Below are positions 4,071-64,000 of a DNA stretch of 64,000 nt, piece by piece. The stretch is from a virus (taxonomy: Duplodnaviria > Caudoviricetes): positions 13,337-77,336 of IMG/VR virus record IMGVR_UViG_3300028805_000096. One strand, 5' to 3'. Below the pieces are notes generated by a model, which ran no database searches, had not been told where the DNA came from, and worked only from the letters and a program-made list of their open reading frames with translations. The number at the start of each line of letters is the position of its first letter. Position 1 is the stretch's first letter. Position numbers and translations under genes: made by a program.

Positions 4071-5108
4071 ATGGAACAAATTGCAGTAAACTTTACAGAT
4101 GGATGAGTGCCAAAGACTTGACTAACTCCATTAGCTACGATTATAGACCTTAACGGTAATGTAATGGTAGAGAACGGTGTATGTAAAGAACTATGATACT
4201 GATGGTATATTTACAGCTTTGATAGATACTCTCCAGAAAAAGTATATCTATACGTATTTGATGGATGAGATACTCTTGAGAGCGATTATGATAGATATAA
4301 GTTCTGAGGTAATGAGCTTGATGCTTACTCTAATAAATATTCTTGGGGTAGAACTGCTGCACCTTACTTTACTTCTGTTAATGGTAGATTTGATAGAATA
4401 GATAAGTCTATTAAAGATGCTGTAAAGAGCAGAAAAATCTATGATGATAAAGAGGTAAGAAAAGGTTTAGCAGAAATCAAGAAAGAAATCAAAGGTAAAG
4501 GTTGATATGATGTTTATAAGAGGTTAGATAGCCTTGGAAATATTTTAGAGGAGGTTAAACAGTCAGTAGTTGACACAAGTGCCACTAATGATTGAAACAG
4601 CTCTAAGAATTTCTCTGGTATCAATGGAAAGCTTGATTTAATGGCAGAATATGTTGTTAAAATCAAAGAAGATATTGATAATCAACTTTCTAGCTTAGAT
4701 GAGAATGTAGCACAAAAGATACAAGAAAGCAATGATAACATAAACCAATGAATGTCTAATAGAGTAACTATTGAACAGCTATTACAGCAAGTAGAGAGAT
4801 TAGAGAATAAACTTAATGAGGTTGTAGATAGTGTAGTTTCTGAAAGACTGCCACAAGAACTTACAGATAAATATGATGTAAATGTAAGTAGAAAAGGTTG
4901 AATGTCTGATGAAGAAATAATGGCTGCATTAGGTATCCCAGAGAATGAATGAAATCAATATTGACTTAATCAGTGATTAAATGAATGAATGGAAATGTGA
5001 ATGGAAGAAGGGTTGAGTGAGGGTTTATGAGAAGCTAGAGAACAATGAGTTAATGCACCAGTAGATATGCAGTGAATAGCAGAACCAGAAATGCCTTTAA
5101 ATTATTAA
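4071..5108 (+). CDS. Phage A hypothetical structural protein (345 aa)
   Basis: Continuous ORF with TGA=G (MEQIAVNFTDGGVPKTGLTP...), with coiled-coil-like middle and acidic C-terminus. Confidence 0.7.
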
Positions 5109-5119
5109 TTCTAAATTAG

Positions 5120-7756
5120 ATGGTACAAATCATAACTAACAGCAACTGATGAGGATGAGTTTGATTATACAAATACAAGGGAAGCGTTGATTACTATGCA
5201 GACTTGCCTACTTCGTGATTGAAAGTATGAGATACTTATAATGTAGTTAATGCTTTCACTAAAGATGGTAAAGATTACCCAGCTTGAACTAATGTAGCTT
5301 GGACTGGTAGTGACCGAGACCCATTATGATGAAGCATAGACCTAAGCGATTATCAAAAGAAGTTAGTTGAATGAGAATGAATAGACTTAGACCAAGATAC
5401 TAATGAAATCAGTGTAGATACAACAGTTATTGCTACAAAGCAAGACTTAACTACTAAGCAAGATGTAATATCAGACTTAGATACTATTAGAAGTTGAGCT
5501 GCATTATGAGCCACATCTATACAACCTTGAGATAATGTAAGTGAATTAGTTAATGATGCTGGTTATCTTGTAAGTTCAGACTTAAAACAATCTGACTGGG
5601 GGCAAACTGATAGCTCTAAAATAGATTACATAAAGAATAAACCAACCATTTGAAATGGTACTTTGACGGTTAGTAGAAACTGAGTACAAATTAACACTTT
5701 TAGTGCTAATCAAACTTCTAATAGCTGAGTAGATATAAGTGTGCCTACTAAAACGTCTGATATAGAGAATGATAGCTGATATATCGATAAAACTGTTTCT
5801 AACTTAGATAATTACACATTAAGCTCTAACTTATGTGCAGTCGCTACAAGCTGAAAATATTGTGACCTATCTGGTAGAGTTACTGATAACTCTCAAATAG
5901 CAAACGGATGTGGTTATATCACTTCTGCAGCATTAAGTCCTTATGCTAAATGTACTGATATTCCTACTGATAACTGTCAGTTAGCAAATGGATGTTGATA
6001 TATTACTTGAATTAGTAGCACAGATGTAACTGACGCTCTATGATACACCCCATACAACTCTACTAACCCTAATGGTTATACGACTTGTACTGGTACATTA
6101 GTTGCATCAGATTTAACGCCTTATGCTAAAACTTGTGATATAAGCTGTGTATGAAAAACTAACCAATACTGCGACCTAACTTGACTTCCTACAATACCTT
6201 GAGTAATTGATGCTCTTAATTCTTCTTGTACTAATCAAGCATTAAGTGCAAAACAAGGTTGCGTATTAAATAGCTGTGTATCTGCAATTAACTGAAAGAT
6301 ACCTAGTGCTGCTACTACTTCTAATCAATTAGCAGATAAGGCTTTTGTAAATAGTTCTATCAACGCTTTAGCAGCTTTCTATATTACAAAGAATGCAGCT
6401 TGAGACCAATTTGATACTTATGCTGAGTTGGTTTGAGCTACAACATATTACAGTGGATGAGTAGTTAGAGTTCCTACTACTAACGATTATGCAATAGTTA
6501 AATCTGATGAAAACCATAGTGGAGAAACGACTAGATATAGTTATCAAACAAGCCAATGGGAATACCAATATACTGTTAACGAAACTCCTTTAACTCAAAG
6601 TCAATTAGATGCTCTAAACTCTTGAATTACTAGTGGTAAAGTATCTACTTATGACTGATATGCTACATCTAAACAAGATGTATCTAATATGGTATGTACT
6701 TTAAGTTGAGCTGATGATGCACATTATCCATCAGCAAAGGCAGTAGCAGACGCTCTAAGTTGTGCTTGAGCTTGAGATATGCTAAAGAGTGTATATGACC
6801 CTAACAACTGTAACACAGATGCTTTCAACTATAACAATCTGTACAATAAGCCTACAATACCTACAAATAACAATCAATTAACTAATGGATGCTGATATAC
6901 TACTTGTACTGGTACTCTTACAGCTTCTAATATATCTGATGCTGCTTATAGTAGTTCTTGGAATTGAGTAACTACTGTTGCACCTTCTAAGAATGCTGTA
7001 TATGATAAAATAGAAAGTGTAATATCTAGTATCCCTACAAACAATAATCAACTTTCTAACTGATGTGGTTATACTACTTGTACTTGAACATTGGTAGCAA
7101 GCGACTTAACTCCTTATGCAAAAAGTGCAGATTTAGCTGCTGTTGCTACAAGTGGTAAATACTGTGACTTATCTTGACTTCCTACAATATGAACAGCCAC
7201 TTTAACAATTCAGAAAAACGGTACTACTGTTAATACTTTCTGAGCTAATGCTACTTCAAATGTAACAGCAAATATTACAGTTCCTACAGATACTTGAGAT
7301 TTATCTAATAATGCTTGATTTATTACAGCTTCAGACTTAACCAATGGTAGCTGAATATCTATTAGTTGAACTACTATATCTAACAGTTGAGTTCTATCTG
7401 TTAATGGCAATACTTGAGCTGTAACTGTTTCAGAGTTCACGCCTTGAAGCTGAACAACTTGACAAATACTTACAAAGACTGCTACTGGATATGCTTATTG
7501 TGACGCACCAGCTACTTGAATACAATCATCTAATAATACTTATGATAATATCATACATTTATCACAATCAGATTATGATAATCTAGGGACTTATGATGAT
7601 GAAACATTATACTCTACACCAGATGGAGAGGCTTGAAGTTTTGTAGATAATACAGCTTTTTGACCTAGTTGGGATGGAGTAGTAGATAAAGCACCTAGTA
7701 TGAATGCTATATATGATGTATTAGGAGATGTTGAAACTTTACTTGCTAATATATAA
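5120..7756 (+). CDS. Phage A tail fibre protein with internal repeats (878 aa)
   Basis: Fibre motifs YKYKGSV, WTGSDWDPLGG, NQLxNGCGYTTCTGTL repeats, VLSVNGNTGAV, APSKNAVYDKI. Confidence 0.85.
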
Positions 7757-7761
7757 AATAG

Positions 7762-9318
7762 ATGACAATAGCTAGTGAAATAAGCAGATTACAGAATGCT
7801 AAAGCTGATATATGTACAGCTATAGAGAATAAATGAGTAACTGTATGAGATATAACTTTAGATAAATATTCTTGTTGTATTGATGCAATAAGTAGTGGTT
7901 GATGATGACCTTATTATATAGATTATTTAGCTGTTGGTTGATGAGGTTGATGATGATATTATTGTTATAATAACCAATATTGTCCATCTTGATGATGATG
8001 ATGAGGTTGAAATGTAGTAGAATGATGTTGCGAGCAAATACCAGTATCTGTGCCAGTTATTATAGGTAAATGAGGTAAATGATGAGCATTTTGTTGAGAA
8101 GAATGATGAAATACTACTATATGAAGTATAGTATATGCACAATGATGATGAGCTGGAAATCAACGTTGTACTTCTTGCTATACTTGAGGTATTAGTTGAA
8201 CTTGATGTGATTGATGATATTCTTGAAATACTGAAATGATGGGTGGCTGATGATGATGAGCGACTTGATGTGGTAGTTGTTCTTCAGTTTATACTACAGC
8301 ATCTAATTGATGAGCTTGAAAATGTTGATATTGATGATGATGATGAGGTTGATGAGTTTGTACTTATTGAGTTTGATGTGATTGATGATGAAATTGAGCT
8401 TGCAGATATAACTCATCTACTTGCCGTCCTTGTGCATATGCTACTAATGCAACTAATTGTTGATGATGATGAGGATGAGGTTATCCTTGAGGAAATTGAG
8501 CTTGATGAATAGTTAAAATATCATACCCAGCAGATTGAAGTTATTGATTTGAAAAAGCAGAATGAGGAGTAATTACTTGTGAAGGTTGAATAATAACTCA
8601 TACATTCACAGAAAGTTGAGAGTTTAGGATAGCCCACGAAGATGGTTTATGCTATGTAAATTATATGGTTGTGTGATGATGATGAGCACCAAGAAAAGGC
8701 TCTACTTCTATGGGTGGTGCTTGATGAGAGGTAATATTATGAAGAATATCCGTTGAGTGATGTTTAGGTATAACAATAGGATGCTGATGAAATTGTTGTA
8801 CTTGATATGAAAGTTGATGAAATAGTAAATTAGATTATTGAGGATGATGTATTATAGCAACTTGAGGTAAATTTGGAAGTTTTAATAAGAATTATATATC
8901 GTGAAGTTGTTGAAGTTCACAATATATGCCTTGATGAGCTTGAGCCAGATGAAATTGATGAGATGCTGAATTTAGCTATTCAAGATGATGAGCTTGATGA
9001 CAATGATATTGATGCTATTGATGGGGATGAGATTGAGGAGGATGCCGTTGTAGAAGTCATACAGGTACTTGATGAGTTTGATGAAGTTACTATGCTAGTT
9101 ATGATTGATGCGATGCCACTTGTTATTGAAGTTGATGATGAGGTAGTTATAGTAGTTGATATCCTTGAAAGTGATGTCAATGAGTAGTAGATATATGCTA
9201 TCCTACAGATTGAAGTTATTGATTTATGAGTGCTACTTGATGAGATTGTTGTTATACTTGTGATGGGATGTGCGTACATAGATTTACTTCTAACTGAACA
9301 TTTACAATAGTTAGTTAA
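7762..9318 (+). CDS. Phage A Gly/Cys-rich tail-associated protein (518 aa)
   Basis: Runs of TGA codons give GGGGGG tracts. Two tandem glycine-rich domains (YLAVGGGGGGG...HTFTESG; YMVVGGGG...HRFTSNG). Confidence 0.85.
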
Positions 9319-12341: not shown

Positions 12342-12456
12342 TGAAATGAAAATAAGACACGTAGAAATTCTGAGCTGAATAATTATTCATCTGTGAATAT
12401 AAACGTGTCTTAAAATAATCAATTTACTTTACATTTATATCATAACTATATATAAT

Positions 12457-12492
12457 ATGCCTTGTGGATGAAGAGGAGGAAAGAGGAAATAA
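12457..12492 (+). CDS. Micro-ORF MPCGGRGGKRK
   Basis: Last ORF before the late terminator. Near-identical peptide at 29574-29612 in the same position in phage B. Confidence 0.6.
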
Positions 12493-12509
12493 AAAATTCT
12501 TTCCAACTT

Positions 12510-14276: not shown

Positions 14277-14304
14277 AACCTATAAATTAAAATATAAAAG
14301 TCTG

Positions 14305-14457
14305 ATTACTTCAAGTAGCTTATCAAATCTTCAATAGGTGTATCTGATATTGATAGTAGCATTAGCAACCTATCCTCTCATCACAATTCTCAATAGTATC
14401 AGTCATCTAACTCTATTTGTAATCTGAATTCTTTAGTTTTTTGCACTCGGTCTATCT
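14305..14457. repeat. Direct repeat, copy 1 of 63848-64000
   Basis: 151/153 identical, offset 49,543 bp. Confidence 0.95.
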
Positions 14458-14677
14458 TATCATTCTCTACTAACCATTTAATAAATCAATACTCCTTACT
14501 TATAAGTCTTGGAACTTCTAAGTACCAACTCTTCCAATCTCATTCTCAATTATCATCTCGGCTCAGCACTAAATATGAAGAGTTCCACTCTGTCGCTGGC
14601 TCTATTCTATAAGTTTCAAATGGTCAACAACTACTTGTGTGTCCATATTCGTTTATAAATCTAATAAGTTTATCCAT
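14306..14677 (-). CDS. Hypothetical accessory protein 'gene X' (copy 1)
   Basis: 123-aa ORF ending LLMLLSISDTPIEDLISYLK. Its 3' end recurs at 63848-64000, and 21229-21573 is a distant relative. Confidence 0.7.
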
Positions 14678-14707
14678 TTTCTTTAGATAAATAATATAAA
14701 AGTCTGA

Positions 14708-14977
14708 TTAAATCTCTTTAATATTTTCTATAGGTATTGGCTCATACACTCTTACTTGCCAACATCAATTTTGGTAGTTATTGTATCTCCAATTCTCTCG
14801 TGGATTATACTCTACCTCTAAAACAATATCTCCATACTGCTTAGCTTCATTCTTATCTACTGCTAGATATGTACATCTACTCGGTGCATCTCTAACTCAT
14901 CGTAATTTTCATTCAGATTTTATTTTTTCTCGGTTTTCTTTAGTCGTTCAATGATAGAATTTCATTTGTCTAGTCAT
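14708..14977 (-). CDS. Small YHGT-motif protein (ADP-ribosyltransferase-like fold candidate)
   Basis: MKFYHGTTKENWEKIKSEG...TYLA, 89 aa. Confidence 0.55.
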
Positions 14978-15155
14978 TAAATATAAATCACTTATCTGTA
15001 TAGTATCAGTCTTCTGTTGAGAAGAATATAGTATATCATTTCTTCATTAGTTTAAGTCTTCTATTCTCCTCTTTAGCATTTTTCAAATCTAGTTCGTATC
15101 TTAACCTCTCATTTTCTTTTTTTAGAAGTTCTAATTCAGATTTTTCTTTTTCCAT
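14970..15155 (-). CDS. Small coiled-coil protein
   Basis: 61-aa ORF with the conserved leader. Confidence 0.55.
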
Positions 15156-15255
15156 TTCCTTTTGGTAAATAATATAAAAGTCTGATTAGTCTATACTATC
15201 AACAGTATCAATTCAGTATCAATTTTTATTTCATTGATATTGTTGGCTGTTTTTT

Positions 15256-15852
15256 TTAATTCTCGAAATAGAAACTCAACTCCTCTGGATCTATATCTAT
15301 AACCCCATCTTCATACACCTCCCCATCATTATGCTCTAACTTCACTAATCTTCATTTCTCATACCAACATAAATCTTCTACCCAATATCAATGCTTGTTC
15401 TCATGACTATATTTAAATACTTTCTTCTTTAATACAATTTTTCACGTGTATTCCATGATATTTCAATTCCATTCCCTCTTATCTCCACCTCTCATAAATT
15501 GTTGCTTCTCCTCTTTAGGTTCCGATAAAAATTTCCCAGCCGCTATCTCCCTTAACTTATCCATATTCGGTTTCCCCGATTCCATCTTCTCTTGAATAGG
15601 TTCTCTGTTCGGTGTCTCCTTTAACCTCTTATTCTCTTCCTCTAACTCTGCTATCCTTTTCTCTTGTTTCGCTACCTTTTCCTTTAACTCCTCTACCTCC
15701 GCCTCTACTCCTGTTTGGACTAGCCTATATCATTCATCTACTACCTCTAACTCCCCTCTCTGCTTCATCCTATCCAATAACCTCGTATCTTTCGGATTCT
15801 TCCCGAGATATTCTAGTACCTCTTTTTTACTCTGAAAAATTTTTTCTGACAT
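15256..15852 (-). CDS. Hypothetical protein with possible N-terminal DNA-binding region and coiled coil
   Basis: 198-aa ORF with TGA=G: SKKEVLEYLGKNPKDTRLLDRM...EVEELKEKVAKQEKRIAELEEENKRLKE. Confidence 0.65.
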
Positions 15853-16049
15853 CTTTTTTGATTTGTTAGTTCTAAAGCCTTATGATGATATCATATCAAC
15901 TCTTTTATATCTTTTATCTGCTGCATTGCAAGCCGAAAGTTGATATTATGTCAACCGAGAGGCGTTGATTTTCATTTTTTTACAAATTTTTGGTAGCCAC
16001 TATGGCATACCGTTTCCGCCTTTCTCAATTTCTTTGTTAGCGAAGATTT

Positions 16050-16850
16050 GGTTTCAGAAAGATTGCTTTAGCTTTGTGTTTTCTGTGTTTTTGCTGTGTG
16101 TTTTGCAGACAGTTTTCTGTTTCTTTTGTTGCTACCCCTCCCCTTTTGGTTGACATTGTGTCATCTTCGCAGTTCTCCCCTTGCTTCTGGTGTGTTGTGC
16201 CACCTCCGCTGTTGTGTGTGTCACATTTGCACCGTGCTTGCGGTTGTACCTGGTGTTTTGCTGTGCTGTGCTGGTGCTTTTTGAGGTAGTGCTGTCGGTT
16301 TTTCTGTATTTTCTTCCTCTGTTGCCTCTGTGGTGTTGAGTTTTCCCAGTTCTCGTGGTGTGTGGTTGGTGTGTCCTGGTTTTGTGGTCTGTTGGGTGTT
16401 GTGTGGTGGGTGTGTGTCGTGCTGTGTGCTGTTCGTGTTGTCTCTGTTGTGTATTGTTTTGGTTTGGTTGTTTGGTTGTGTGGCTCTGTCCGAGATTTTG
16501 TGGTGTTGTTGCTTCGTGTGTGTCTCGTGTTGCTGGTGTGTGTTGGTGTTGTTGTTCTTCTGTCTCTGTTGGTTCTGTTTTGTTTTGGGTTGTCCGCTGT
16601 TTTGTGGTCCTCCTGGTTGCTGTTCGTCTTCTGGTTGGTTGTCGTGGTTGTGTTGCTCTGTCCGCTTTTTTGCTCCTGGTATGTTTTGCTCCTCCTGGTT
16701 GGTTCATGTTGTTGTTTTTGGTGGTAGGTCTTCTGGTGTTGCTCTCTCCGCTGTTTTGTGTGGGTTCGTGTCGTTTTGTCACGATCTGGTTCTTAACGCA
16801 GAATGCCACCCTGGTTGGGTGGCTGTGTGGTGTTGCCTGTGCGTACTTGT
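16050..16850. other. Adenine-depleted (T/G-rich) tract, probably non-coding
   Basis: About 8 A in 16321-16740 and none in 16496-16680. Contains recurring short motifs. Confidence 0.85.
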
Positions 16851-16853
16851 GAA

Positions 16854-17165
16854 TTAGTCTAGGGTTCTTGGTCGGTTTCTGTCGTTTTCTCCGTATCTGT
16901 CGTGGAGGTAGCTGAGTTGTGCTTCCGCTCTTCTTGCGTTTTGCTCTCTCTTCTGAATGTTGCTGTCTTTTCTCAGGCTTTTTTCTCGTCCCGTTTTTAT
17001 CTCGATCCGCATCTCTTCCTCCGTCTTGCTTTTTTTTGGTCGGGAGTTTGCGTAGATGGTTGGTCCGTCTTCTCTTCTTACTTCCCCTAGCCAGTACTCT
17101 TCTGGGCTACTTGGGTAGATTTTGGTTGTGAGTGTTGCGGTGAACTCTCCTCGTTGTTTTGTCAT
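16854..17165 (-). CDS. Early hypothetical protein
   Basis: 103-aa ORF with AACCAAACAACAACC-ATG leader. Confidence 0.7.
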   Translation of the reverse strand: MTKQRGEFTATLTTKIYPSSPEEYWLGEVRREDGPTIYANSRPKKSKTEEEMRIEIKTGREKSLRKDSNIQKREQNARRAEAQLSYLHDRYGENDRNRPRTLD

Positions 17166-17287
17166 GGTTGTTGTTTGGTTATGGCTAAATGTTTGGCTTG
17201 CAGGAGCTGTGTGTGGTAGGTTGCTCCTGCTTGCTTGTCTGTATCTTATCCCTTTTTTGGTTTTTTTGTACCGTTTTTTTGAATTAT

Positions 17288-17307
17288 GGTATAACCATTG
17301 GTTATCA
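17288..17307. promoter_or_regulatory. Palindromic operator copy 1
   Basis: GGTATAACCATTGGTTATCA, matching the consensus G[AC]TAAC-N5-GTTA[TG]C seen at four other sites (one mismatch). Confidence 0.6.
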
Positions 17308-17568
17308 GAGTTTTCTTCTGATTCGTCCCAGCAGTCCCTCGTTTGCTCGGTGTTTCTGCTGTACTACTTCCCTTTGCAGGTGTTGGACTTGCTCCTGGAG
17401 GTCTTGTATGGTCTCTGCTACTTGATCGGGGTTCTTCTCCCTCTGCATTTCTGTTTCCATGTACCCTGCGACCTTGTGAGCTCGTTTCTCTCTGTCCAGC
17501 GGTATGTGCTTGCAGGTGGCTATGGCTCTTGTTACCCGTCGTTTCACTATCTCGTCGTGGTTCATCAT
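17302..17568 (-). CDS. Early hypothetical coiled-coil protein
   Basis: Track ORF extended by TGA=G to TAA. Confidence 0.65.
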
Positions 17569-17581
17569 TGTGTGCTCTGGA

Positions 17582-17776
17582 TTATTCGTAAAAGTTCTTG
17601 GCTTCGTATACCGCCTGTTGGAGTTCTTGTACTGCTCCGCTTATTTTGTAGTAGAAATCTTTTGCTACCTCGTCCTGCTGGTTCTCCATTTTGTCCTCCA
17701 GCATCTCCATTGTCTGGATTAGCGTTGTTGTTTCTTCCTCTCCTAGGTACGCTTCCAGTTGCTCTAGTTTGTTCAT
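17582..17776 (-). CDS. Early hypothetical protein
   Basis: 64 aa, conserved leader. Confidence 0.7.
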   Translation of the reverse strand: MNKLEQLEAYLGEEETTTLIQTMEMLEDKMENQQDEVAKDFYYKISGAVQELQQAVYEAKNFYE

Positions 17777-17797
17777 GGTTGTTGTTTGGTTTATATA

Positions 17798-18067
17798 CTA
17801 AAAGTCTCTAATTGTGTTCAAAATGTTCTCCTGCATTTCGTCTGCGTAATCTCCTATTTTCGTGTCGATATGTTCTCGTGCTTCTTGTTGGGTTAGGTGT
17901 TCTCCTGTCTCTTCGTTGTCCCGTGTTCACTCTTCCCATCCGTTTCTAGGTGGGTAGAATGTTCGGTGTTCTTCGAAGTCCATTATGGCTTTTTGCCTCA
18001 TGGTTCTTTCAATTTCTTTCATGAGATTCTGTAATCTCCCTTGCTTGTATTGGTCTGTGATTTGCAT
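17798..18067 (-). CDS. Early hypothetical acidic protein
   Basis: 89 aa with TGA=G, conserved leader. Confidence 0.7.
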
Positions 18068-18089
18068 GGCTGTTGTTTGGTTAATGTTA

Positions 18090-18329
18090 CTAAAAGTCGT
18101 CATCGTCCAGGAGTCCTTGCTCCCTTACTATCCTGATGATGTTTGCTAAGCTGAGCCACTCGTGGTTTATGTAGCATCAGCTGGTGAAGTCGTAGGAGTT
18201 CTCCTTGTCGAAGTAGATTTCTTCCTCTGTTCTTTCGTCTGTGTCGTCTCCGTTGTCTCCCTGTTCTGGGTAGTCTATCCCGTATGCGTCGCAGAGAGCT
18301 TCGACTAGTGCTTTTTCTTTTTCTGTCAT
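18090..18329 (-). CDS. Early hypothetical acidic protein
   Basis: 79 aa with TGA=G, conserved leader. Confidence 0.7.
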
Positions 18330-18434
18330 GTTGTTGTTTGTATAGAATATAAATGTTGTTGCTTGGGTTTCTTCCCCTTGCTTGATTGTATGTTATTTAT
18401 TTTTTGTGTTTTTGTTAGTTCTTGTTTGCATTTT

Positions 18435-18453
18435 CCGCTAACCTTTAGTTAGC
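18435..18453. promoter_or_regulatory. Palindromic operator copy 2
   Basis: CCGCTAACCTTTAGTTAGC. Confidence 0.65.
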
Positions 18454-18658
18454 AGAGTCCGATCGTTTTTTCTAAGATTTTTATTGTGTTCTCTATGTCG
18501 TTGTATAGTCTTCCGTATGCGTCTAGGATGTAGTTTCTTCCGTCGATTTTCTTCCAGGTGTATCTGTGTTCTGGGAGGTAGTACTCATTGCATTGTTTGA
18601 GTCTTCTCTTCATTCTTCTCTCTCGGTTTTTGTCGTTTGTTAGTTTGTTGTTTGCCAT
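18449..18658 (-). CDS. Early hypothetical basic protein
   Basis: 69 aa, conserved leader. Confidence 0.7.
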   Translation of the reverse strand: MANNKLTNDKNRERRMKRRLKQCNEYYLPEHRYTWKKIDGRNYILDAYGRLYNDIENTIKILEKTIGLC

Positions 18659-18705
18659 GTTGTTGTTTGGTTAATTAATAAATGTTGTGTGGTTTTGGTG
18701 CCTCC

Positions 18706-19071
18706 CTAGAATGGGAGGTCACCGTATTTTTCTAGTCTGTCTTCCTCGTCTGTTGCTGTTTCTGCTATTCTCTGTTCTAGTTCTCGGTTGTTTATGTCGT
18801 AGTAGCGTTTTGTTGTTTTCCCTACTGTTATTTCCGTAATGCTTCTTTCGTATCCGTCTTCCTCTATTCGTGCTTCCTTAATTTGTGCTATGGCTGGTTT
18901 TCCGTTTACCTCTGTTTCTGCTTCCTTGATCCAGCCTTGTGTTTTTGTTATTGTCTTCTGGTTCTTTACTGTTCTTTTTTTTTCGTCTTCTCTAATTAAT
19001 TTGTTTGTTGTTTTTGTTAGGATGTTTGCTAGGTTGTCTCGACCTTGCTGTTCTTTTTTTGTGTCCACCAT
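18706..19071 (-). CDS. Early hypothetical protein with SSB-like acidic DLPF tail
   Basis: 121 aa ending EEDRLEKYGDLPF. Confidence 0.65.
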   Translation of the reverse strand: MVDTKKEQQGRDNLANILTKTTNKLIREDEKKRTVKNQKTITKTQGWIKEAETEVNGKPAIAQIKEARIEEDGYERSITEITVGKTTKRYYDINNRELEQRIAETATDEEDRLEKYGDLPF

Positions 19072-19210
19072 GTTGTTGTTTGGTAATAATCTAAAGGTTG
19101 CTTGCAGGGGTGTGTGGTTGAACCTTATGTTGTGTGTGGTAGGTTCTCCCTGCTTGCTTGCCTTTTATATATCTAAGATTTGCGATTTTCCTACTGTTTT
19201 TTTGAATTTT

Positions 19211-19230
19211 GTGATAACTTTTGGTTATCA
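19211..19230. promoter_or_regulatory. Palindromic operator copy 3
   Basis: GTGATAACTTTTGGTTATCA (TGATAAC/GTTATCA inverted repeat). Confidence 0.7.
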
Positions 19231-19380
19231 GGTAATTTAATATTTTTCTTGAAATTTCCGTCGTATTATTTATTTTGTATTTGTCCACAAAAATCATTTG
19301 AATTTTCTAAGTTCGTCGGTGGACGGACGAGTGATTAGTGGACACAGCCTGTGGGTTATGGCTGAAATGATGTTTGGCAG

Positions 19381-19411
19381 GACGGACGCTTCGGCGTTCG
19401 TTTTTCTTTTT
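19381..19411 (+). terminator. Intrinsic terminator-like hairpin on the + strand
   Basis: GACGGACGC-TTCG-GCGTTCGTT followed by a T-run. Confidence 0.6.
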
Positions 19412-19469
19412 GAAAAAAGGAGGAAGCATTGCGTCTCCACGTTTATGCTTTACCCTCCCCCGTAATAAA

Positions 19470-19646
19470 TTAAGTGATCTCGGGCTGTTTGTGTTTGGCA
19501 CGCTCCCCTCCAAGTAGTTGTATCATCCCCTCCTTTTTCTCCTGGAGCTTTTTCTTCTCCTCTTCGGATAGGTCGTCGGGTATGTTAAGTATTCGGATCT
19601 GATATCCCTCACCTTTATGTACTCGTTCTGTGTATTTCTTCGGCAT
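19470..19646 (-). CDS. Hypothetical protein
   Basis: 58-aa ORF MPKKYTEWVHKG... Confidence 0.55.
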   Translation of the reverse strand: MPKKYTERVHKGEGYQIRILNIPDDLSEEEKKKLQEKKEGMIQLLGGERAKHKQPEIT

Positions 19647-19725
19647 TTTACTTGGTTATTGACTAAATCTAGTTTTTATATAAGGATTTGTACTGTTAAT
19701 TTCTATTCTATTTTTGTATTTTACG

Positions 19726-20394
19726 CTATCTATTAGTTATCACATGGACTCTTTTATTGTTTTGTTGTTCTTTTATCGTCGCTCGCCTACAATTTTCTTT
19801 GCAGTAGTGTCCGTTTACATCTATTCTATCTATGGTAGTTTGTTTCTCTCCGAATTCTTTTACATGTTTTTCATATGCTTCCCCCATATCGTGTTTGAAT
19901 TCTTCGAAGTTTCTTCGGAAGCATTTTATTCATCTGTCGTAGTAGTTTTTCTTGCCTGCATGTCATTTTACTCTTCCCTGGATATCTAGCCGTATGGTGT
20001 AGAGTCTCATCTTTCTTGTTGGCTGATCGTATTTTCTAAATGTTTTCATTTTTTCTTGGAAATAGCATCAGCATGATACTGGATGTCAATTTGCGAGATT
20101 TGTGAGATTGCATACTGTTATTTTTCAGCAGTCGCATTTTGCTTGTACCATTCTTCTCCCATTTTTCTTTTCCACTTCTTTGATGATGGTTAGGTGTCCG
20201 TATCTCTTACCTATTATATCTTTATGGACCATGTTCGTACATCCACAACTTTTAGAGATTCATTTTATAACGTGGTATGCTCTTGTTTCAATAATTCTTC
20301 AGCATTTGTTGCATTTGCACATTAGTCGTTGATGGTATCAGACTTTTTTTCACAGTCACACTATTGTATATCCTCCATGTATTTCTCCTATCAT
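19726..20394 (-). CDS. Phage HNH-type endonuclease-like protein
   Basis: Two W.CKC/CDCG repeats, LYTI[CGG=W], RGIKC, TIDRIDVNGHYCKENCR[CGA=W]AT. Confidence 0.85.
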
Positions 20395-23627: not shown

Positions 23628-23707
23628 TTTGCTATTGGTTATGATATAAATGTTGTATTTTGCTTATATCCACAGTTTGGCGATTTGCAACACTTTTTTT
23701 GTATTTT

Positions 23708-23728
23708 CCGCTAACCTTTGGTTATCAC
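23708..23728. promoter_or_regulatory. Palindromic operator copy 4, upstream of a TTGCAA...TATAAG promoter (- strand)
   Basis: CCGCTAACCTTTGGTTATCAC. Confidence 0.7.
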
Positions 23729-25225: not shown

Positions 25226-25879
25226 TTAGTGGTAGACTAATGTATTTGGTTTCTCTTCCTTTTTCTTCAGCTCCCGTTCTCTTATTGGAGTGGTTCATTG
25301 GTATCAGGATGCTATGCTTTTTTCTAATGTCATAAGCATTCCCTCTTCACAATCCAGTCCATCTTTCTTTAATTTATTTACCCGCCTGGTTAGCTGTCCC
25401 TTGTCGAATTTGCGGATCTTTGGTCATGCTTTGTACTGGTCGAATACCAATGTTAATTCTATTACTTTTTGTGGTAGCTGATACTCTATCTCCAATTTGT
25501 TTTTTAATTCTTCCAGTTCCTTTTCTTTTATATTATTCTTATTTATAATATTATGTGGAAGATTTCTTCCACCCTCTCATGGAAGATTTTTTCCACCCTC
25601 CTGGAAGTTTTCTTCCACCCTACCAATTTTGATAGTTCTTTTGTTTCATTCTTTCAGTTCTACTGTAATGTATCCGTGGTTCTGTAGTTCTGTGATGTGT
25701 TCTCTGATTGTTCTTCCTGTCACTCCATATTGTTCTGCTATCCGATCGTTTGTTGCTCGGCAGTATCATTTTTCTGCACATAGCGAACTTATGAAGCAGA
25801 ATAGTAGTTTTGCCTTATCCGATAGTTGTTGGTCGAATAGGACTCTGTTTGGCATTATACCATATCCCTGATCCAGCAT
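25226..25879 (-). CDS. Replication initiator (HTH, lambda O-like)
   Basis: LSDKAKLLFCFISSLCAEKGYC[CGA=W]ATN..IAE; internal iterons; immediately upstream of the helicase. Confidence 0.8.
25556..25621. repeat. Three iterons (putative replication origin)
   Basis: TGGAAG(A/T)TTT(C/T)TTCCACCCT x3 next to an AT-rich stretch inside the initiator gene. Confidence 0.75.
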
Positions 25880-26787: not shown

Positions 26788-26814
26788 TTTTTATCTTCTT
26801 ATTATATTATGATC

Positions 26815-27375
26815 ATGGATGAGAAAATGACATTAAGGCAGAAGCTATTCGAGCTTCAGAAATTACATCTTCGTATAGGTAAGAATGCGGAGGCTGGATC
26901 TGGTTGAAAGTGGAGTTATAAGTACGCCACTTTGGACAAGATTTGGGATGAGATTCAGGACGTTATGGATTCTCTTGGTATCCTAGAGTCGTCTTCTATT
27001 AAGTACAATGACGCAGGAGCTACATTTGTTTATACGTCGTTGTTTAATATTGACGATCCAGATGATACTATCTGCTCTCTATTTCCTTTGGACAATACTT
27101 TGTCTCCTCAGGATATGGGAAAGGTAATCACGTATTGACGTAGGTATAATTTGGTTGCTTTGTTGAATCTCAAGATTGTTTGAGAGGATGACGACGCTCA
27201 GGGTGTTGGTGCGAAGAAAGCTTCCATCAATGGTGACAAGTTCGTTGATACTATATTGGATAGTTGAAATCTTGAAAAGGCGAAGACTTTATTGAGTAAG
27301 GTTGAAGCTGGTGAGTATTCTCTATCTCCAAAGAAGTTAGAGACTTTAGTTGCATTTATCGATTCTAATGTATAG
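26815..27375 (+). CDS. erf: ERF-family single-strand annealing protein
   Basis: YKYATLD, PQDMGKVITYGRRYNL, GEDDDA. Confidence 0.85.
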
Positions 27376-27376
27376 A

Positions 27377-27610
27377 ATGGATGCGTTACACGCCTCGTGT
27401 GAGAATACTGCGAGGCGTAAGATTAAGAAGCTTTGCGATAGTATATTGAGGGATGAGTGAGTTCTAGTTGGTCTTGCTGATCTCTCCTATCGTGGAGATA
27501 ATGTTTGGACATTTGTCCTGGTGGATAAATTGCCAGACAAGTGATATTTACTTTGATGAAAGAAATATAATGAACGTTGTGAAAACAGAAGAGATCCATA
27601 TGTATGATAA
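27377..27610 (+). CDS. Hypothetical protein
   Basis: 77-aa ORF with TGA=G, overlapping the next start. Confidence 0.45.
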
Positions 27611-28328
27611 GACTATCATGTTCTATCCCACTTCCCATCAGTACAAGCTGGTGGTGGGTGAGAAGAAATCTGATTGGCAGACGATTGACTCTGTGTCTCG
27701 TATTTGCGGGATTGTAGATAAATCGGACGCTTTATTGATTTGGGCTAGTAGGCTTTGCTCTGAGTATCTCCTATCACTTCCTGTTCAGAAGAGGACGGAT
27801 GAAGAGGTGAAGATTGCTGTTAATAAGCACAAGGAGAAGAAAGAGGAAGCTGCTAACATAGGAACGTTGGCTCATGCTTGGGCTGAGGAGTATATCAAGA
27901 AAGGGGATATTTCTTTTCCTGACGATCCACAGGTTGCTAATGCTGTGAATGGTTTCCTTGAGTGGAATTCGCAACATGATATCAAGTGGCTTGCGTCTGA
28001 ACGTTTCGTGTATTCCGACGAGTACAATTACGTTGGTATCTGTGACGCTATTGCAGTTATTGACGGGAAGAAGTATTTGGTTGACTTCAAGACTTCGAAT
28101 AGGATTCGTAAGTTGGAGTACGGAATGCAAACTTCTGCGTATGTATATGCTTATGAGGAGGAGACGGGAGAAAGGATTGATGGAGTTATAGTTGCTCGTT
28201 TCTCTAAGGACGACATGGACGTACCTTTTGAGGTGTTCGAGTTCAAGAGCGACGACATATTGTTTTTCTTCGATCTATTCAAGTCTGCTCAGAAGCTTTA
28301 CAAGGCGAAGAAGCTCTACGACAAGTAG
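27570..28328 (+). CDS. PD-(D/E)XK exonuclease
   Basis: GTLAHAWAE, SERFV, VGICDAI, LVDFKTS, QTSAY. Confidence 0.85.
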   Translation: MNVVKTEEIHMYDKTIMFYPTSHQYKLVVGEKKSDWQTIDSVSRICGIVDKSDALLIWASRLCSEYLLSLPVQKRTDEEVKIAVNKHKEKKEEAANIGTLAHAWAEEYIKKGDISFPDDPQVANAVNGFLEWNSQHDIKWLASERFVYSDEYNYVGICDAIAVIDGKKYLVDFKTSNRIRKLEYGMQTSAYVYAYEEETGERIDGVIVARFSKDDMDVPFEVFEFKSDDILFFFDLFKSAQKLYKAKKLYDK

Positions 28329-29443: not shown

Positions 29444-29516
29444 TGCGAGGAGATGCTTTGGTATGCATACGACTCTCATAAGGTCGTCGTTCCTGGTTCG
29501 AATCCAGGTCTCGCAA
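29444..29516 (+). tRNA. tRNA with CAT anticodon (Met, or Ile2)
   Basis: Acceptor TGCGAGG/TCTCGCA, D-stem ATGC/GCAT, anticodon arm CGACT-CTCATAA-GGTCG, T-arm CCTGG-TTCGAAT-CCAGG; no encoded CCA. Confidence 0.88.
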
Positions 29517-29564: not shown

Positions 29565-29573
29565 GTGTAGGAA

Positions 29574-29612
29574 TTATTTTCTCCTACCTCCTCTTTTTCA
29601 TCCACAAGGCAT
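29574..29612 (-). CDS. Micro-ORF MPCGGKRGGRRK
   Basis: Last ORF of the phage B late operon. Counterpart of 12457-12492. Confidence 0.6.
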
Positions 29613-29614
29613 GT

Positions 29615-29863
29615 TTATATTTGGTTAGGATCTAAATCTTTTTTCTCTTCCCTTTTTATAAGTGTGTCTGGGTATTCCTTAGGATTCTTGTCCTTGAAGT
29701 AGTAGTTGGTTATCTGCATTGCTACGGATAGGAAAGCAACTATTACTCCTGTCTTGTCTTCTATGTTTGCGAATACATAGTATCATGTGAAGACACACAG
29801 ACAGATTATAATTATTAGGAAGACGAGTTTTGTTATAGATAGTTTTTCTCGTAGATTTTTCAT
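29615..29863 (-). CDS. Phage B holin-like two-TM protein
   Basis: MKNL[CGA=W]EKLSITKLVFLIIIICL...NYYFKDK. Homolog of 9943-10182. Confidence 0.75.
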
Positions 29864-30024: not shown

Positions 30025-31602
30025 TTAGTATAACTTAGTTCGGCTTATGTCTGGTTGTACTGCTTCGTTTTTGAATGGTCTTATTGAACAAGCTCTACTT
30101 ACGGGGTTATAGCCAGGTTGGTCGGCTCTATTAGCATAAGATTGTTGTCTCGCCGCATTTAATCAATAAGATAAAGCTAACGCAGTAGATGTCCAAATAT
30201 ATGCTGTGGTATCCCTATTCATAGTGCCTCAGCTTTCTGTAAGTCATCAACATAAAGGTATTTTAAGATATGAGAGATATTTATCTGCTCAATATCATCA
30301 TTGTCAGCTACCATTTGCAAAATTCCATAATCACATACTATTTCATAAAGTACCTAGTGCAAGCATTTCAGTTCTTGATGGGATATGCCATCATTCAGCA
30401 CAAGGTCATCTTCTAGCTACTAATGTATCTGTTGTATCCCCCCAGAGATTTACATTTTTGCTGCTGTCCCAATATGTAGCAGTTATATACGTAGATGAGT
30501 TATAATAATTATTAGGTCAGTAGTTTTGTGCATTTACTTGTGTAGGACTTGTAGTGGTAGGTCAAGTAAACGGAAATCAATAGTTGTTTCATCGCTGGTA
30601 AAACTTTCAGCAATTACTTTCGCTCATCGTATCTCAACTAGAATATACAGCTGTTGCTCACAGATTTTTATCTGCTATTGTTAGCCAAGTGTTTCAATCA
30701 CTACTCAGACTTATTAAGTCTTCTGTTTTATTCCAATATATTCAAGCTGTTGTTATAGGTGTTGCACTAGGTCGTACTTTTGTTTCTCATAGATAGACTG
30801 CTTTAGCTGCTCATTCTTCTGTTGTTCATTGGCTTACTCATCATCGGAGATTTCAGTTATCTGTCGTGTCCCATCTATATGGACTTGATGATACAGTTAT
30901 AAATGTGTCACTTGAATAATAATTTCAAGGTCAATATACACTAGCATCTACTTTTGTGCTAGAAGTAGTTACACTTCAAGTTCGTGGAAATCAATAATTA
31001 TTTCATCGTTGATAATATTTTCAACAGTTTGCTTCTGATAAAGTATCTCAACTATTCCATACTGTAGTAGCTCATAAGTTTTTATCTGCTATTGTTATCC
31101 AAGTCTGTCAGTCACTACTTAATGAAATTAATCACTTTGAGCTATTCCAAAATATTCATCAGCTTTCTATACTCGTTCAATATAGCTTAGTCCAAGAAGA
31201 CATAGGCACAACAGGGGAATTCTTGAAACAACGGACAGAGGAACCGTACGTACGGCGGTAGACATCCTGAGGATTAAGAGTATCCGAATTGAAGTACAGG
31301 TTGTACGCGTAATTAGTATTGCTACGCGAAGAGGACCAATAGTACCCGTAGGAACCCTGACCGTAAGCACCAGCAGACGAGTTGCTACGGTAACCAGCGA
31401 AAGGCAACTTTAATGCTATTCAAAAGTTAGTTCAGTCTGAACTTCATCCACCTAAAGCTGTTCGGATATTTCTTACAGTTTGCCATTCTGTATTAAGTGG
31501 TACGTGGAACCCATCAGGACAAGGTCACTGCATATCACTTATAGTTATACTTCATCAAGCATACAGATTTTTTATCTCTTTATCTCATATATAAATACTC
31601 AT
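30025..31602 (-). CDS. Receptor-binding protein with repeated CLec/Fib_succ_major-like modules (DGR target 1)
   Basis: 525 aa. QGPCPDGFHVP...LKLPFAGYR...YYWSSS...SVRCFKN, plus further modules (TIADKNLGA, YQWGNN, YIWTST). Confidence 0.85.
31217..31410 (-). other. DGR-type variable region 1
   Basis: GC-richer 194-bp block, colinear with 32126-32319. Differences concentrate in codon positions 1-2 of NNC/NNT codons. Confidence 0.75.
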
Positions 31603-31627
31603 TCTTTTATTTATTAAGAAATAAAGA

Positions 31628-33004
31628 TTAGTCTGTTACAATAGTTATCACATTACTAGATGTTCAACTAGCTGGTGCTGATGTGGATGTTACTATCTTG
31701 TAGAGCTGGTCTCAAACTACTAGGTTTCAAGATACTGTCTGAATTCAAGTTACTCATCACCAAAGATTTCAATTATCTGTCGTGTCCCATCTTCAATTAT
31801 ATTTTATGAATGTATCACTTGAGTAATAATTTCAAGGTCAATAACTACTTGCATCTACTTGAGTTGTACTTTGATTTGCTATTGTTCAAGTTCGTGGGAA
31901 TCAATAATTATTTCATCGTTGATAATATTTTCAACAGTTTGCTTCTGATAATGTATCTCAACTATTCCATACTGTTGTGGCTCATAAGTTCTTATCAGCT
32001 ATTGTTATCCAAGTAGTTCAATCTGAGCTTAATGATATAAGTCAATCTGCAGAACTCCAAAATATACCACCTGCTTCTATACTTGTTCAATATAGCTTAG
32101 TCCAAGAAGAATTAGGTATAGCTGGGGAATTCCTAAAACAACGTACAGATAAACCGCGCGCACGGGTGTCGCTATCCTGAGGACGAAGAGCAGTCGAAAC
32201 GAGGAGCAGTTTGTACGCGCTATAACTATAGTAACGCGAAGAGGACCAATAGTACCCGGTGGAACCATGTTCGCTAACACTAGCATCGCCGTAATTACGG
32301 TAACCAGCGAAAGGCAGCTTTAATGCTATTCAAAAGTTAGTTCAGTCTGAACTTCATCCACCTAATGCTGTCCATACATCATAAACAGCTTGCCATTCAG
32401 TTGTTAAAGGTACGTGAAATCCACTAGGTGCAGGTCACTGCATAGCTGTGTAATCTTTTCACTCATACGTACCATCCAATCAGATTTCATCATTTGTTAT
32501 ATCTATTCAGTTTCCTGCTGTATAGTTACCACCTGTTTGGATAGTCACATCTCCATACTGTCAGTTTACACTTGTGACTCAGGTATTTGAAATAGTGTTT
32601 CAGTTAATTCAGATTCATGTACCTGGTGTTAGTGTATTTTGTTTTCCCGCTATTGTAGTATCCATAGAGCTGATTTTGTCGTAGACAGCGTTTTTACTTG
32701 GAGCTTGTGTTGTGTCTCAATTCCATGATGATCCATAAGCTACATCACTTATTATTTGTGGATAGTCTATATTTACCTCTGTTATGTTTGTTACTTGTCA
32801 GAGATTGTTGGTTGTGATTTGTGGAACTTTCTGTCCTGTACCTTTTGCAGTATATGCTGTTTGTGTATCCAATGTATTTTGTTTTCAGCTTAGGTCTATA
32901 TTTGCTGTTCCGTTAGACATAACACTAGTTCAGTCGACTTTTACATCTTCTACGGGGAAGTTGTAATCTGTGTTATTGAATTTAAATTTTTTGAGTCTAG
33001 CCAT
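31628..33004 (-). CDS. Tail fibre with CLec-like module (DGR target 2)
   Basis: 458 aa. Fibre N-terminus (APSKNAVYDKI, SVNGQYG), then the same LKLPFAGYR...YYWSSS...SVRCF module. Confidence 0.85.
32126..32319 (-). other. DGR-type variable region 2
   Basis: Same length and invariant frame as VR1 (offset 909 bp, no indels). Confidence 0.75.
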
Positions 33005-59257: not shown

Positions 59258-60847
59258 TTAGATAATTATACCGTGTATTGTTTGTTGGAGTTCCTGGTAT
59301 TTATTCGTTACAGGTTCTCCTGGCTCTGTTTTTTGCACATACTCAGTGGTCTGACCTGGATAACTCTTCGGAATATTCCTCCATATCTCCACTACTTGAG
59401 CTAGTGCGTCCACTACGTCGACTTTCTCTGAGTTAGGGAACTCTAGTATTTGTGTCAGTAGCTTTGTTTTGTAATCAGCTCTTATGTTCTCGTTCAGGTA
59501 TGTCTGTCTTCAGCTGATTGCAGGTTCTAGGTTGTATGTAATTCTATCTAGTTTGTTTCATTTTCCTCTTGGCTTGTAGTGATACAGCCAATCTCTACGT
59601 CCTGTTGCTACCTGTGACTCATTCAGTAGGTTTCGGAACTCGACCATTCATGCGTTGAATTGTCCTACGTCCTCACATCCTATGAATCTCAGGTGGAATC
59701 CCATCGCCTCTCGCCTGTTTATCATCAGGTAGAGATAGTTGATTGCTATTGTCGGTGCGAACGTATCCGCACAGATGTCCAGGATGTATATGTGTCCCGT
59801 GCTGATTCTTCTTCCTGTTAGTATTATTGCTGTGTCACAGCTCTTGGAGTTGGAACTGAGTGCAGGATCTATTCCTATTCCTAGTTCCAGGTCTCTCTTA
59901 CTCTCTTCATTGTCTATGTCGGAGAGTCTTACAGGGATTAGGTCGTCTGGGTTTAGCAGTCCTCCCATTGCTCCTATCGGATCTTGCATGTACAATGCTT
60001 CAAATCCTCTTGGATCTTGCATTTGTATTCTCCTAAGTGAGTTCACGCTGAATCTCTCTGGTCGGAATGATTGCCGTTTGTCCTCATAGTTTCCTGTTCC
60101 TGTATAGTTTGGGTTTTCTATCAGTCATTTAATGTTGAGTAGCTTGAAAGGTTCGTATTCTATTCCCTCAAGCTTCATCTGTTCCTCTAGCTTTTGTATT
60201 CTTCCTACAAGGTCGTCCACATGCCAACGTGTCATGCAGATTATTGTTGCGGATTTATCGTTTTGCTTACGGGTTGATAATACCTGTGTGTACCATTCCC
60301 GTACTTTGTTTCTATATGTTGGAGAGCTTGCCTCCTCTGCGTTCTTTACTACGTCGTCGACTATTAGAACGTTCGCTCATTTTCAGGTTGCGACTCATCC
60401 TACTGAAGTAGCGACGAATTTTCACCCCATTGTGTTTTCCCATTCCTGTGCCTGTGCCTGCGATAGTTTCATTTCTCCGAATATTGCTGCGTGTCTCTCT
60501 GACGTTACGTATCTTTTTGCCTTATTTGAGAACTCTTTGGCTAGGTCTGGAGAATATGACGCAAGCATGAACTGCATTCTTGGGTTTATTCCCATTGCTC
60601 GTGCGGGGAATATCTGTGATACTAGTGCTGACTTTCCTGTTCTTGGTGGCATGGTTATGATCAGGTTCTTTGTTTTTCCGATCATTACCTCTTCTAGTGC
60701 GTTACAGATATCTTCGTGGAATGGTTTCACTGCGAAGCTTCCGAACGGTTCGAATATCCACTGTGCATAACTAAGCAGGTTCGTTTTGCATTGTATCCTC
60801 AACTGGTCAAGTTCCTCCTGTGTCAGTCTGTCCTGTGGTTTCGCCAT
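59258..60847 (-). CDS. terL: Terminase large subunit (529 aa)
   Basis: ITMPPRTGKS, FPAW, LIVDDVVK, CMTRWHVDDL, ALYMQDP, GIDPA, DVVDAL. Confidence 0.93.
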
Positions 60848-63561: not shown

Positions 63562-63847
63562 GACAATAAATTTAGAAAATAAAATATTCACTATGCATAT
63601 TGCGAACGGTATCCCGTCTTTCCCGCTAACAATATGCGATAGTGAGATAGCGTCGACGTAATTTCCCTTGCGGTACTTTCATGTCCCACTATCGGGTGTA
63701 TTATTTCTTAGATTCAGAATGTTTATACATTCAAGAGAATATTTTCTGACCGTCGGGTGTTACGCACCCTCTTACGAATAGTTGACGGAGACTATTAATT
63801 ACTTTGTATAGAGTTGTATCTAAATTTCAAGAGATTTTTATCTGCTC

Positions 63848-64000
63848 ATTACTTCAAGTAGCTTATTAAATCCTCAATAGGTGTATCTGATATTGATAGT
63901 AGCATTAGCAACCTATCCTCTCATCACAATTCTCAATAGTATCAGTCATCTAACTCTATTTGTAATCTGAATTCTTTAGTTTTTTGCACTCGGTCTATCT
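63848..64000 (-). repeat. Gene X copy 2 (3' end, runs off the window); direct repeat of 14305-14457
   Basis: 151/153 identical. The two mismatches are synonymous (GAA/GAG, TTG/TTA). Confidence 0.93.

Follow-up and report, generated by a model that had tools for sequence, protein, structure and literature searches.

An almost adenine-free early/late spacer lies at the end of a kilobase-scale, strand-linked ramp of base loss in an uncultured tailed phage

Here we examine a tract of about 0.8 kb that is nearly devoid of adenine on one strand and lies at positions 16050-16850 of the window, that is, of the whole 64,000-nucleotide (nt) stretch of DNA analyzed (positions 13,337 to 77,336 of the IMG/VR record IMGVR_UViG_3300028805_000096), whose contig joins two different phages, A and B, as set out below. 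Over these 801 nt the plus strand holds only 39 A (A 4.9%; T 46.9%, G 30.7%, C 17.5%), and the A content of 200-nt windows stays below 8% from ~16061 to 17118. A preliminary description, made from the letters alone, had counted 8 A in the 420 nt of 16321-16740 and none in the 185 nt of 16496-16680, and our recount agrees. The latter is the longest run free of any single base within the 64-kb window, with a chance of ~1e-19 per start position given the phage’s plus-strand A frequency of 0.21; the runners-up, of 104 nt (16349-16452) and 54 nt (16727-16780), fall inside the tract too, and outside it the A-free maximum is 54 nt and the C-, G- or T-free maxima are only 28-63 nt. The three motif sets named in the same description are all in place, two of them with no other copy in the 64 kb: CCGCTGTTKTG at 16206, 16594 and 16748 (0.03 expected) and GCTCTGTCCG at 16483 and 16655 (0.04 expected); the third, CTCCTGGT, is found at 16610, 16673 and 16692 and at three more sites outside the tract. 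That the tract is no simple repeat is likewise borne out, the only direct repeats being degenerate ones of ~86 nt.

Read in gene direction, which here is along the minus strand, the locus comprises the following features:

16854..17165, minus strand: conserved gene for a protein of 103 amino acids (aa), the last of the leftward early/replication cluster
16792..16823, minus strand: hairpin and tail that open the spacer, with the stem GCCACCC-AACCA-GGGTGGC at 16805-16823 and the T-containing tail ATTCTGCGTTAAG at 16792-16804
16254..16791, minus strand: core, very probably non-coding, with a minus-strand composition of A 0.49, C 0.33, G 0.15 and T 0.03
16593..16752, minus strand: repeat cluster, with CCAGGAG at 16610, 16673 and 16692 and A(A/C)AGCGGA at 16593, 16661 and 16747
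16050..16253, minus strand: T-poor 3' part of the spacer, beginning at the conserved anchor CCAGGTA
15992..16049, minus strand: promoter-like block, TTGAGA-N18-CATAGT with TG before the second hexamer, plus a small hairpin
15939-15955 and 15884-15900, minus strand: two palindromic operator-like sites, GTTGACATAATATCAAC and GTTGATATGATATCATC respectively, upstream of the 198-aa gene
15256..15852, minus strand: gene for a 198-aa coiled-coil protein, the first of the module leading to a ParB-methyltransferase and terminase

The first description had placed the tract after the last early gene, and the 103-aa gene does close the early/replication cluster. Its product has 16 homologs at 72-96% identity, most of them 102-104 aa long and three being 92-aa, N-terminally shorter calls; as all of them end in ..LD/ID, none is fused to the tract. 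The contigs carrying these homologs (L003-L017) are the relatives referred to throughout, only those reaching far enough being scored for a given feature. A fold model of the 103-aa protein (predicted local distance difference test score, pLDDT, 70) has no match in the PDB at E <= 0.001 and offers no hint of a function in antitermination or RNA binding, no homology to Q, RinA or ArpU was found, and queries with the 103-aa, 198-aa and DnaB proteins against a viral contig set returned no confirmed match, nor did the 103-aa family find one among genome contigs. Further into the cluster, a promoter/operator module with the palindrome TAACC-N3-GGTTA precedes small early genes (17275-17307, 18422-18454, 19198-19230, 19710-19742 and 23695-23727), with a copy also following the 103-aa gene in L005, L007 and L011, where it drives extra genes, and the leaders of early genes have an A/C-rich sequence in common that lacks a Shine-Dalgarno element (..AACCAAACAACAACATG; 17160-17185, 18050-18085, 18308-18358, 18637-18687 and 19050-19100).

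The hairpin and its tail are predicted to form a weak intrinsic-terminator-like element, with a G+C-rich stem of 7 bp and a tail, AUUCUGCGUU, that has only 5 U in 10 positions; a consensus terminator scan made no call. It is the only confidently paired part of the tract RNA, and every relative keeps it where the core begins, L005 and L007 with a longer variant stem, GCCACCGC...GCGGTGGC. Beyond it the 611-nt fold (-57.6 kcal/mol) is nearly unstructured, so that the A/C-rich, unstructured minus-strand RNA of the preliminary description is recovered and is nearly U-free. The core, which contains the plus-strand A-free runs of 16496-16680 and 16349-16452, has no AUG, GUG or UUG in its U-free part and sits behind a stop codon. 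Its first ~300 nt carry the repeats, in which CCAGGAG and AGCGGA are paired at 12- and 17-nt spacing within the degenerate direct repeats, and a featureless A/C-rich center follows. The paired units (CCAGGAG...AGCGGAC) are kept in L005, L009, L011, L013 and L017, ACAGCGGA is absent elsewhere in the 64 kb, and the repeated motifs are probably best regarded as candidate protein-binding sites.

In the 3' part of the spacer, AGCGGA appears for a fourth time (16205-16210), along with a palindrome, TGACACAATGTCA (16151-16163); the sequence here is conserved among relatives, where variants of this palindrome change jointly with the downstream operators, some relatives carrying GTGACA-N-TGTCAC versions at the operator-like places. 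Base composition returns to normal at 15992-16049, where the promoter-like match lies at 16028-15999. This is the most conserved non-coding block, near-invariant in seven relatives and showing no covariation, for which it is too conserved, and is the probable start of the late/packaging control region. The 198-aa gene beyond it has a normal composition (third-position T 0.22), and residues 6-37 of its product are 59% identical to the translated open reading frame (ORF) L001:456-914, two ORFs upstream of the small terminase gene (terS) of phage A; this resemblance indicates that the gene opens the packaging/late module.

The tract might be suspected of being an artifact of assembly or sequencing, a suspicion that could draw on the joining of two phages in one contig and on the many short contigs of relatives that stop in or near the tract. 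It is refuted practically beyond doubt by independent recovery. An independent assembler rebuilt 15166-16834 from the source sample with zero differences; contigs from an RNA library of another sample cover 16003-16494, 16180-16612, 16679-17249 and 16764-17067, each at 100% identity; and a Joint Genome Institute (JGI) contig from a third data set spans 16167-17393 at 99.9% identity. The tract is thus present in three data sets, with homologous tracts in more than 10 independent assemblies, and the phage-phage join lies 1.6 kb away, at 14331-14457. It is important to note that the depth of the RNA-library contigs cannot rank expression, and that uncovered parts (e.g., 14409-15610, run X4) count as no evidence.

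The window belongs to a single contig of 77,336 nt in which TGA stands for an amino acid: there are 79 TGA codons in one ORF of 2111 aa, and within the DnaB-like helicase the glycine position of the conserved IPTGF motif is aligned to a TGA, which fits genetic code 25. In phage A, a 518-aa ORF (7762-9318) has 120 TGA codons, about a quarter of its residues being TGA-encoded glycine, unlike the early genes of phage B, which are TGA-poor. That the contig joins two different phages is clear from their gene sets and depths. Genes for the small and large terminase, portal and head of phage A lie upstream of the window, at L001 1327-8863, and a separate large terminase gene of phage B is found at 59258-60847; depth in the source sample is ~15 for contigs of phage A and ~100 for those of phage B. 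The contig end is an exact 127-nt copy of 14331-14457 (long repeat 14302-14457 / 63845-64000), the only long repeat found for the contig end, and it maps there and not to the tract. Because of this end copy, the separate terminase sets and the unequal depths, phage B is probably a circle of 49,543 nt (window 14458-64000), a size with which relatives of 49,875 and 50,662 nt agree; such a terminal copy is expected if the assembler went from phage A via a shared gene end into circular phage B. The tract falls entirely within phage B, a phage of the rumen. Elsewhere in the window, a 47-nt inverted repeat (77%; 12454-12500 / 29569-29615) links the ends of the phage A and phage B late operons, a single plus-strand tRNA-Met gene (29444-29516) closes the rightward early operon of phage B, and repeats of 215-300 nt that are 62-81% identical (30530-32163) recur between two large neighboring genes on the minus strand, 30025-31602 and 31628-33004.

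Whether the core encodes a protein cannot be read from its open frames: a T-free strand and its A-free complement hold no stop codons, so all six frames are open and the ORFs listed for the tract are meaningless; the T-free strand lacks a start codon as well. For the same reason gene callers annotate spurious ORFs on both strands, among them long Cys/Leu/Val/Phe-rich antisense ORFs at 16096-16857 (plus strand) of the window, at L011:5641-6759 (minus strand) and in public annotations of relatives. The three-base periodicity of the core is at z -1.2 to 2.8, compared with z 10-24 for real genes of similar size and z 20.7 for the T-poor, Arg/Glu-rich gene L005_a, which is periodic in spite of its composition, and the codon-position composition of the core is flat. 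None of 20 indels in the 97%-identical pair L009/L010 is a multiple of 3 (~30% are overall), single bases are deleted at 16182 and 16262 in a relative of 98% identity, and the longest ORFs of relatives read homologous DNA in differing frames. Neither the tract ORF nor the 103-aa protein has a match in Pfam or PHROG, and Rfam gave no family at E <= 1 over 15000-19500. We therefore hold the core to be non-coding with high confidence, and the earlier reading of the tract as non-coding stands, given the missing periodicity, the frame-breaking indels and a 103-aa protein that always ends before it.

The competing view, that the minus strand encodes a low-complexity, hydrophilic and basic protein such as the 191-aa, T/Q/R/H/K-rich ORF 16132-16708, we regard as very improbable. 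T-free codons do specify only disorder-type residues, and the ATG at 16708 within the tract is preceded by the leader context of the early genes (AACCAAACAACAACATG) and opens a ‘MNQP’ start common to the window, L003, L008 and L010. Furthermore, L005 has a complete 273-aa ORF running from just past the hairpin to a conserved end, ..FANKEI..NGM(P/Q)*, where its stop varies from TAG to TAA and L013 shows GGA changed to TGA at the same place, and gene callers have annotated ORFs here in relatives. Against this, frames that are open by construction give such ORFs no weight, close relatives are separated by frame-shifting indels, the shared ATG is absent in L011 and L017, and the conserved 3' stretch, readable as ..FANKEIEKGGNGMP*, is severed from any start by an in-frame TAG in the window and L003.

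The preliminary description had proposed a search of related phages for a skewed tract, and such a tract is positionally conserved in every relative reaching far enough. Its longest gene-strand T-free runs are as follows:

L003/L004: 342 nt
L005: 324 nt
L011: 316 nt
L007: 303 nt
L017: at least 300 nt
L013: 249 nt
L008-L010: 218 nt

From the hairpin to the anchor CCAGGTA, the core measures 546-663 nt in six relatives, and its composition is A 0.46-0.50, C 0.325-0.333, G 0.15-0.20 and T 0.015-0.03, with 10-24 GGA per core. Its sequence is a patchwork of short A/C-rich units with many indels between relatives; position and composition are thus conserved while the sequence drifts, and in the 98%-identical relative none of the differences listed for 16051-16375 makes a plus-strand A, which suggests that the loss is still under way. 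Three relatives have an extra, strongly periodic and hence real gene between the 103-aa gene and the core (L005:6578-7321, L007:2323-3066 and L011:5624-5890). Its 247-aa product consists to ~72% of Arg, Glu, Thr, Asp, Ala and Lys, has no T at four-fold sites, and is a protein visibly shaped by the T-avoiding pressure.

The loss of adenine extends well beyond the spacer. In 500-nt bins along the 3-5 kb leading up to the anchor, gene-strand T declines from ~0.20 to 0.01-0.02 and C climbs from ~0.2 to 0.33, and both reset abruptly behind the tract. This ramp is present in the window, L003, L005, L008, L011 and L013 (Spearman 0.70-0.94), and gene by gene the plus-strand G/(A+G) falls with distance from the boundary (rho -0.54, p 7e-5), with a gene-to-gene scatter that probably stems from recent gene exchange. 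Of the seven genes at 16854-19071, six have a third-position T of 0.01-0.04 (0.02 in the 103-aa gene); the value is 0.03 in DnaB and 0.12-0.36 in late genes. The NNY codons of the seven adjacent genes end in C 134 times versus 13 times in T, and the four-fold sites of these genes have T at 0.03 and G at 0.15, the very values of the core, with C at 0.19. Together, the ramp and the T loss at synonymous sites show that the tract is the saturated end of the ramp and no discrete element, and to that extent the special element of the preliminary description dissolves into a gradient of 3-5 kb that also hits the synonymous sites of genes.

Genes on the opposite strand reveal what the bias follows. 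In the plus-strand genes 26809-27375 and 27570-28328, third-position A is 0.13-0.16 and T 0.37-0.43, and 65-74% of NNR codons end in G versus roughly 20-30% in minus-strand genes; across phage B, plus-strand third positions are 70-77% G+T in both gene directions, and phage A is without the effect. As genes on the opposite strand also shift from A to G on the plus strand, it is the DNA strand and not the transcript that the bias follows, whatever the gene direction, so that neither U-free RNA as a requirement nor transcription-linked mutation nor codon selection explains it. The U-free transcript that had first been singled out is, accordingly, the reflection of a DNA-strand property. Several specific candidates were set aside: translational codon selection, since the bias extends to non-coding DNA and is missing from late structural genes; transcription-associated mutation, since divergent operons show the same DNA-strand shift and hence opposite sense-strand shifts; and adenine mutagenesis of the diversity-generating retroelement (DGR) type, which randomizes adenines rather than removing them, no reverse transcriptase having been noticed on phage B. 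A purge of defense targets, also suggested at first, finds no support and is unneeded for a one-strand bias. The L005 opposite-strand gene 4967-5437, within the T-poor block, proved to be a spurious antisense ORF and provides no extra test of strand linkage.

A lambda-type origin, with three tandem 21-nt palindromic iterons (TGGAAGATTTCTTCCACCCTC, spacing 22-24 nt), is found at 25556-25622 inside a RepO-like initiator gene, which speaks against the earlier idea of an origin within the tract. The skew keeps its sign across these iterons, and one-way replication may fit this better than two-way replication.

In light of these results, we consider it reasonably probable that the tract is an unconstrained early/late spacer of ~0.8 kb and termination zone in which a strand-specific substitution pressure has reached saturation. 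The pressure would convert plus-strand A to G (gene-strand T to C), grow along the final 3-5 kb of the early region and break off abruptly at the late control region. Inside genes it would be restrained by amino-acid needs, with 1-4% T nevertheless left at synonymous sites, and would push proteins toward residues with T-free codons; in the spacer, T is down to 0-3% because nothing there restrains it. Its cause may resemble the single-strand-exposure gradients of mitochondria, with one strand remaining unpaired longer near a fixed boundary in one-way replication. As for function, the spacer would serve as an early/late termination and insulation zone, in which the weak hairpin is followed by unstructured, untranslatable RNA with more C than G, and DNA of such make-up would be unable to hold promoters, start codons or stop codons. 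The termination zone is supported by the hairpin and T-containing tail, both kept in a T-avoiding setting, and by a core C/G of ~2.1. Rho entry sites are loosely defined by an excess of C over G and little structure (PMC12360218), a description that the core RNA fits (C 0.33 vs. G 0.15, little structure, location behind a stop codon), and weak intrinsic terminators cooperate with Rho (bioRxiv 10.1101/2022.07.21.500918).

Several observations weigh against this overall explanation. The length is held at ~550-660 nt, though a purely neutral spacer should vanish from a compact genome, and core C is held at 0.33, compared with 0.19 at the four-fold sites of adjacent genes. The central 300 nt are T-free in several relatives, fewer T than the 3% of synonymous sites predicts (as in the 342-nt gap of L003), and some selection on composition atop the mutation pressure is therefore likely. 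The ramp is also uneven by gene: DnaB has a third-position T of 0.03 at 8.5 kb and some of its neighbors 0.27-0.33, which may again be due to recent gene exchange. Furthermore, as the most extreme 3 kb hold no opposite-strand gene, strand linkage is demonstrated for the milder bias only; adenine-specific loss that exceeds cytosine loss is unusual for deamination; and the mechanism, the direction of replication and any role of Rho are what we infer.

A bolder proposal, to which we give a rather low probability, is that of a self-reinforcing, strand-specific adenine loss in phages of bacteria that read TGA as Gly, with the boundary as an unrecognized replication landmark. In one-way replication the plus strand would remain unpaired longest immediately right of the late control block, at ~16000-16050, where A might be converted to G, e.g., by unrepaired deamination in a repair-poor host; fewer adenines may in turn remove priming sites, so that exposure would grow further. 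The resulting ramp would turn several kilobases of genes into near T-free codons, reshape their proteins and end in the zero-adenine spacer.

Selection may instead act on the RNA, the U-free, C-rich, unstructured and untranslatable tail of the early transcript being a dedicated Rho loading zone, possibly with a switch in which a protein bound to the GGA-containing repeats (CCAGGAG, AGCGGAC) blocks Rho and lets early transcription enter the late operon. We hold this to be a minority possibility. The C/G of ~2.1, with C in the same narrow range in all relatives, the near absence of structure and the position behind a stop codon and weak hairpin, just ahead of a co-oriented late operon, all accord with it, as do the 10-24 GGA per core and the conserved paired repeat units, and CsrA is known to block Rho on a GGA-rich leader (PMC12360218). 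The RNA-library contigs 16679-17249 and 16764-17067, for which DNA carry-over is possible, span the gene, hairpin and tract. An RNA-level need does not, however, explain a T loss that spans kilobases of upstream synonymous sites, nor plus-strand genes that shift in mirror image and whose transcripts are hence U-rich, and known Rho entry sites extend over 60-90 nt, as against 550 nt here. Nothing specific emerged from searching the literature for Rho in candidate-phylum bacteria or for strand asymmetry in phages.

It appears less probable still, and on the whole unlikely, that the tract acts as DNA, be it in single-strand initiation or second-strand priming, as a recombination hotspot with Chi-like AGCGG repeats on the G/T-rich strand, or as a packaging or genome-end region. 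A composition confined to one strand does suggest single-strand action, a sharp boundary with a ramp behind it recalls the discontinuity of the mitochondrial light-strand origin, the oriented AGCGGA repeats are unique to the tract, and the boundary is a junction of modules differing in G+C, of which the left one is shared with phage A. On the other hand, the lambda-type iterons lie within the RepO-like gene, the terminase genes are ~3.6 kb or more further round the circle, the A-tracts lack helical phasing (no AA phasing at 10-11 nt, as expected for DNA curvature, was found in the cores), and the core sequence drifts freely, contrary to a specific site there.

Returning to the spacer as the saturated end of a strand-specific pressure, the question moves from an odd 0.8-kb element to a lineage-wide ramp at kilobase scale, in which one strand loses one base through genes and spacer alike. 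If the ramp is mutational, it records the replication of uncultured phages of candidate-phylum bacteria (its direction, landmarks and repair gaps), and shows how far base pressure can reach into proteins, real genes of the relatives encoding mostly Arg, Glu, Thr, Asp, Ala and Lys. Should it be the product of selection, an unrecognized constraint on early-region DNA or RNA would be indicated.

To our knowledge, no zero-adenine spacer of several hundred nucleotides has been described, and our literature searches found no description of one that closes a kilobase-scale ramp through genes. Bacterial leading strands show a keto (G+T) skew, and vertebrate mitochondrial DNA has a T-to-C/A-to-G bias graded by the time spent single-stranded. 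Phage B resembles such replication strand asymmetry in that one strand is G+T-rich in both gene directions, the bias is strongest at unconstrained sites, the change is graded with an abrupt discontinuity, and one base is brought down to a few per cent of synonymous sites; it differs in being a double-stranded DNA phage whose bias is extreme over only 3-5 kb, in losing far more adenine than cytosine, and in keeping its polarity at the lambda-type origin. Rho primary sites bind pyrimidine-C dimers in general. Like Rho terminators and rut sites (PMC12360218; bioRxiv 10.1101/2022.07.21.500918), the tract RNA is untranslated, has more C than G and little structure, and as with weak intrinsic terminators backed by Rho it follows a weak hairpin at an operon’s end, before a co-oriented operon that needs silence; unlike a typical Rho entry site, it is six to nine times longer and nearly U-free. 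Finally, the location of the tract, after an early/replication/nin-like cluster (relatives carry NinG) and before an operon leading toward terminase, matches that of the lambda Q-pR'-tR' and Ltr/RinA/ArpU late control regions, and the operator-like palindromes and promoter-like block of phage B likewise recall late control in lambdoid and Gram-positive siphophages, from which phage B departs in the far greater length and the extreme composition of its spacer. None of the three kinds of feature, strand asymmetry, Rho entry regions or early/late control spacers, is in itself new.

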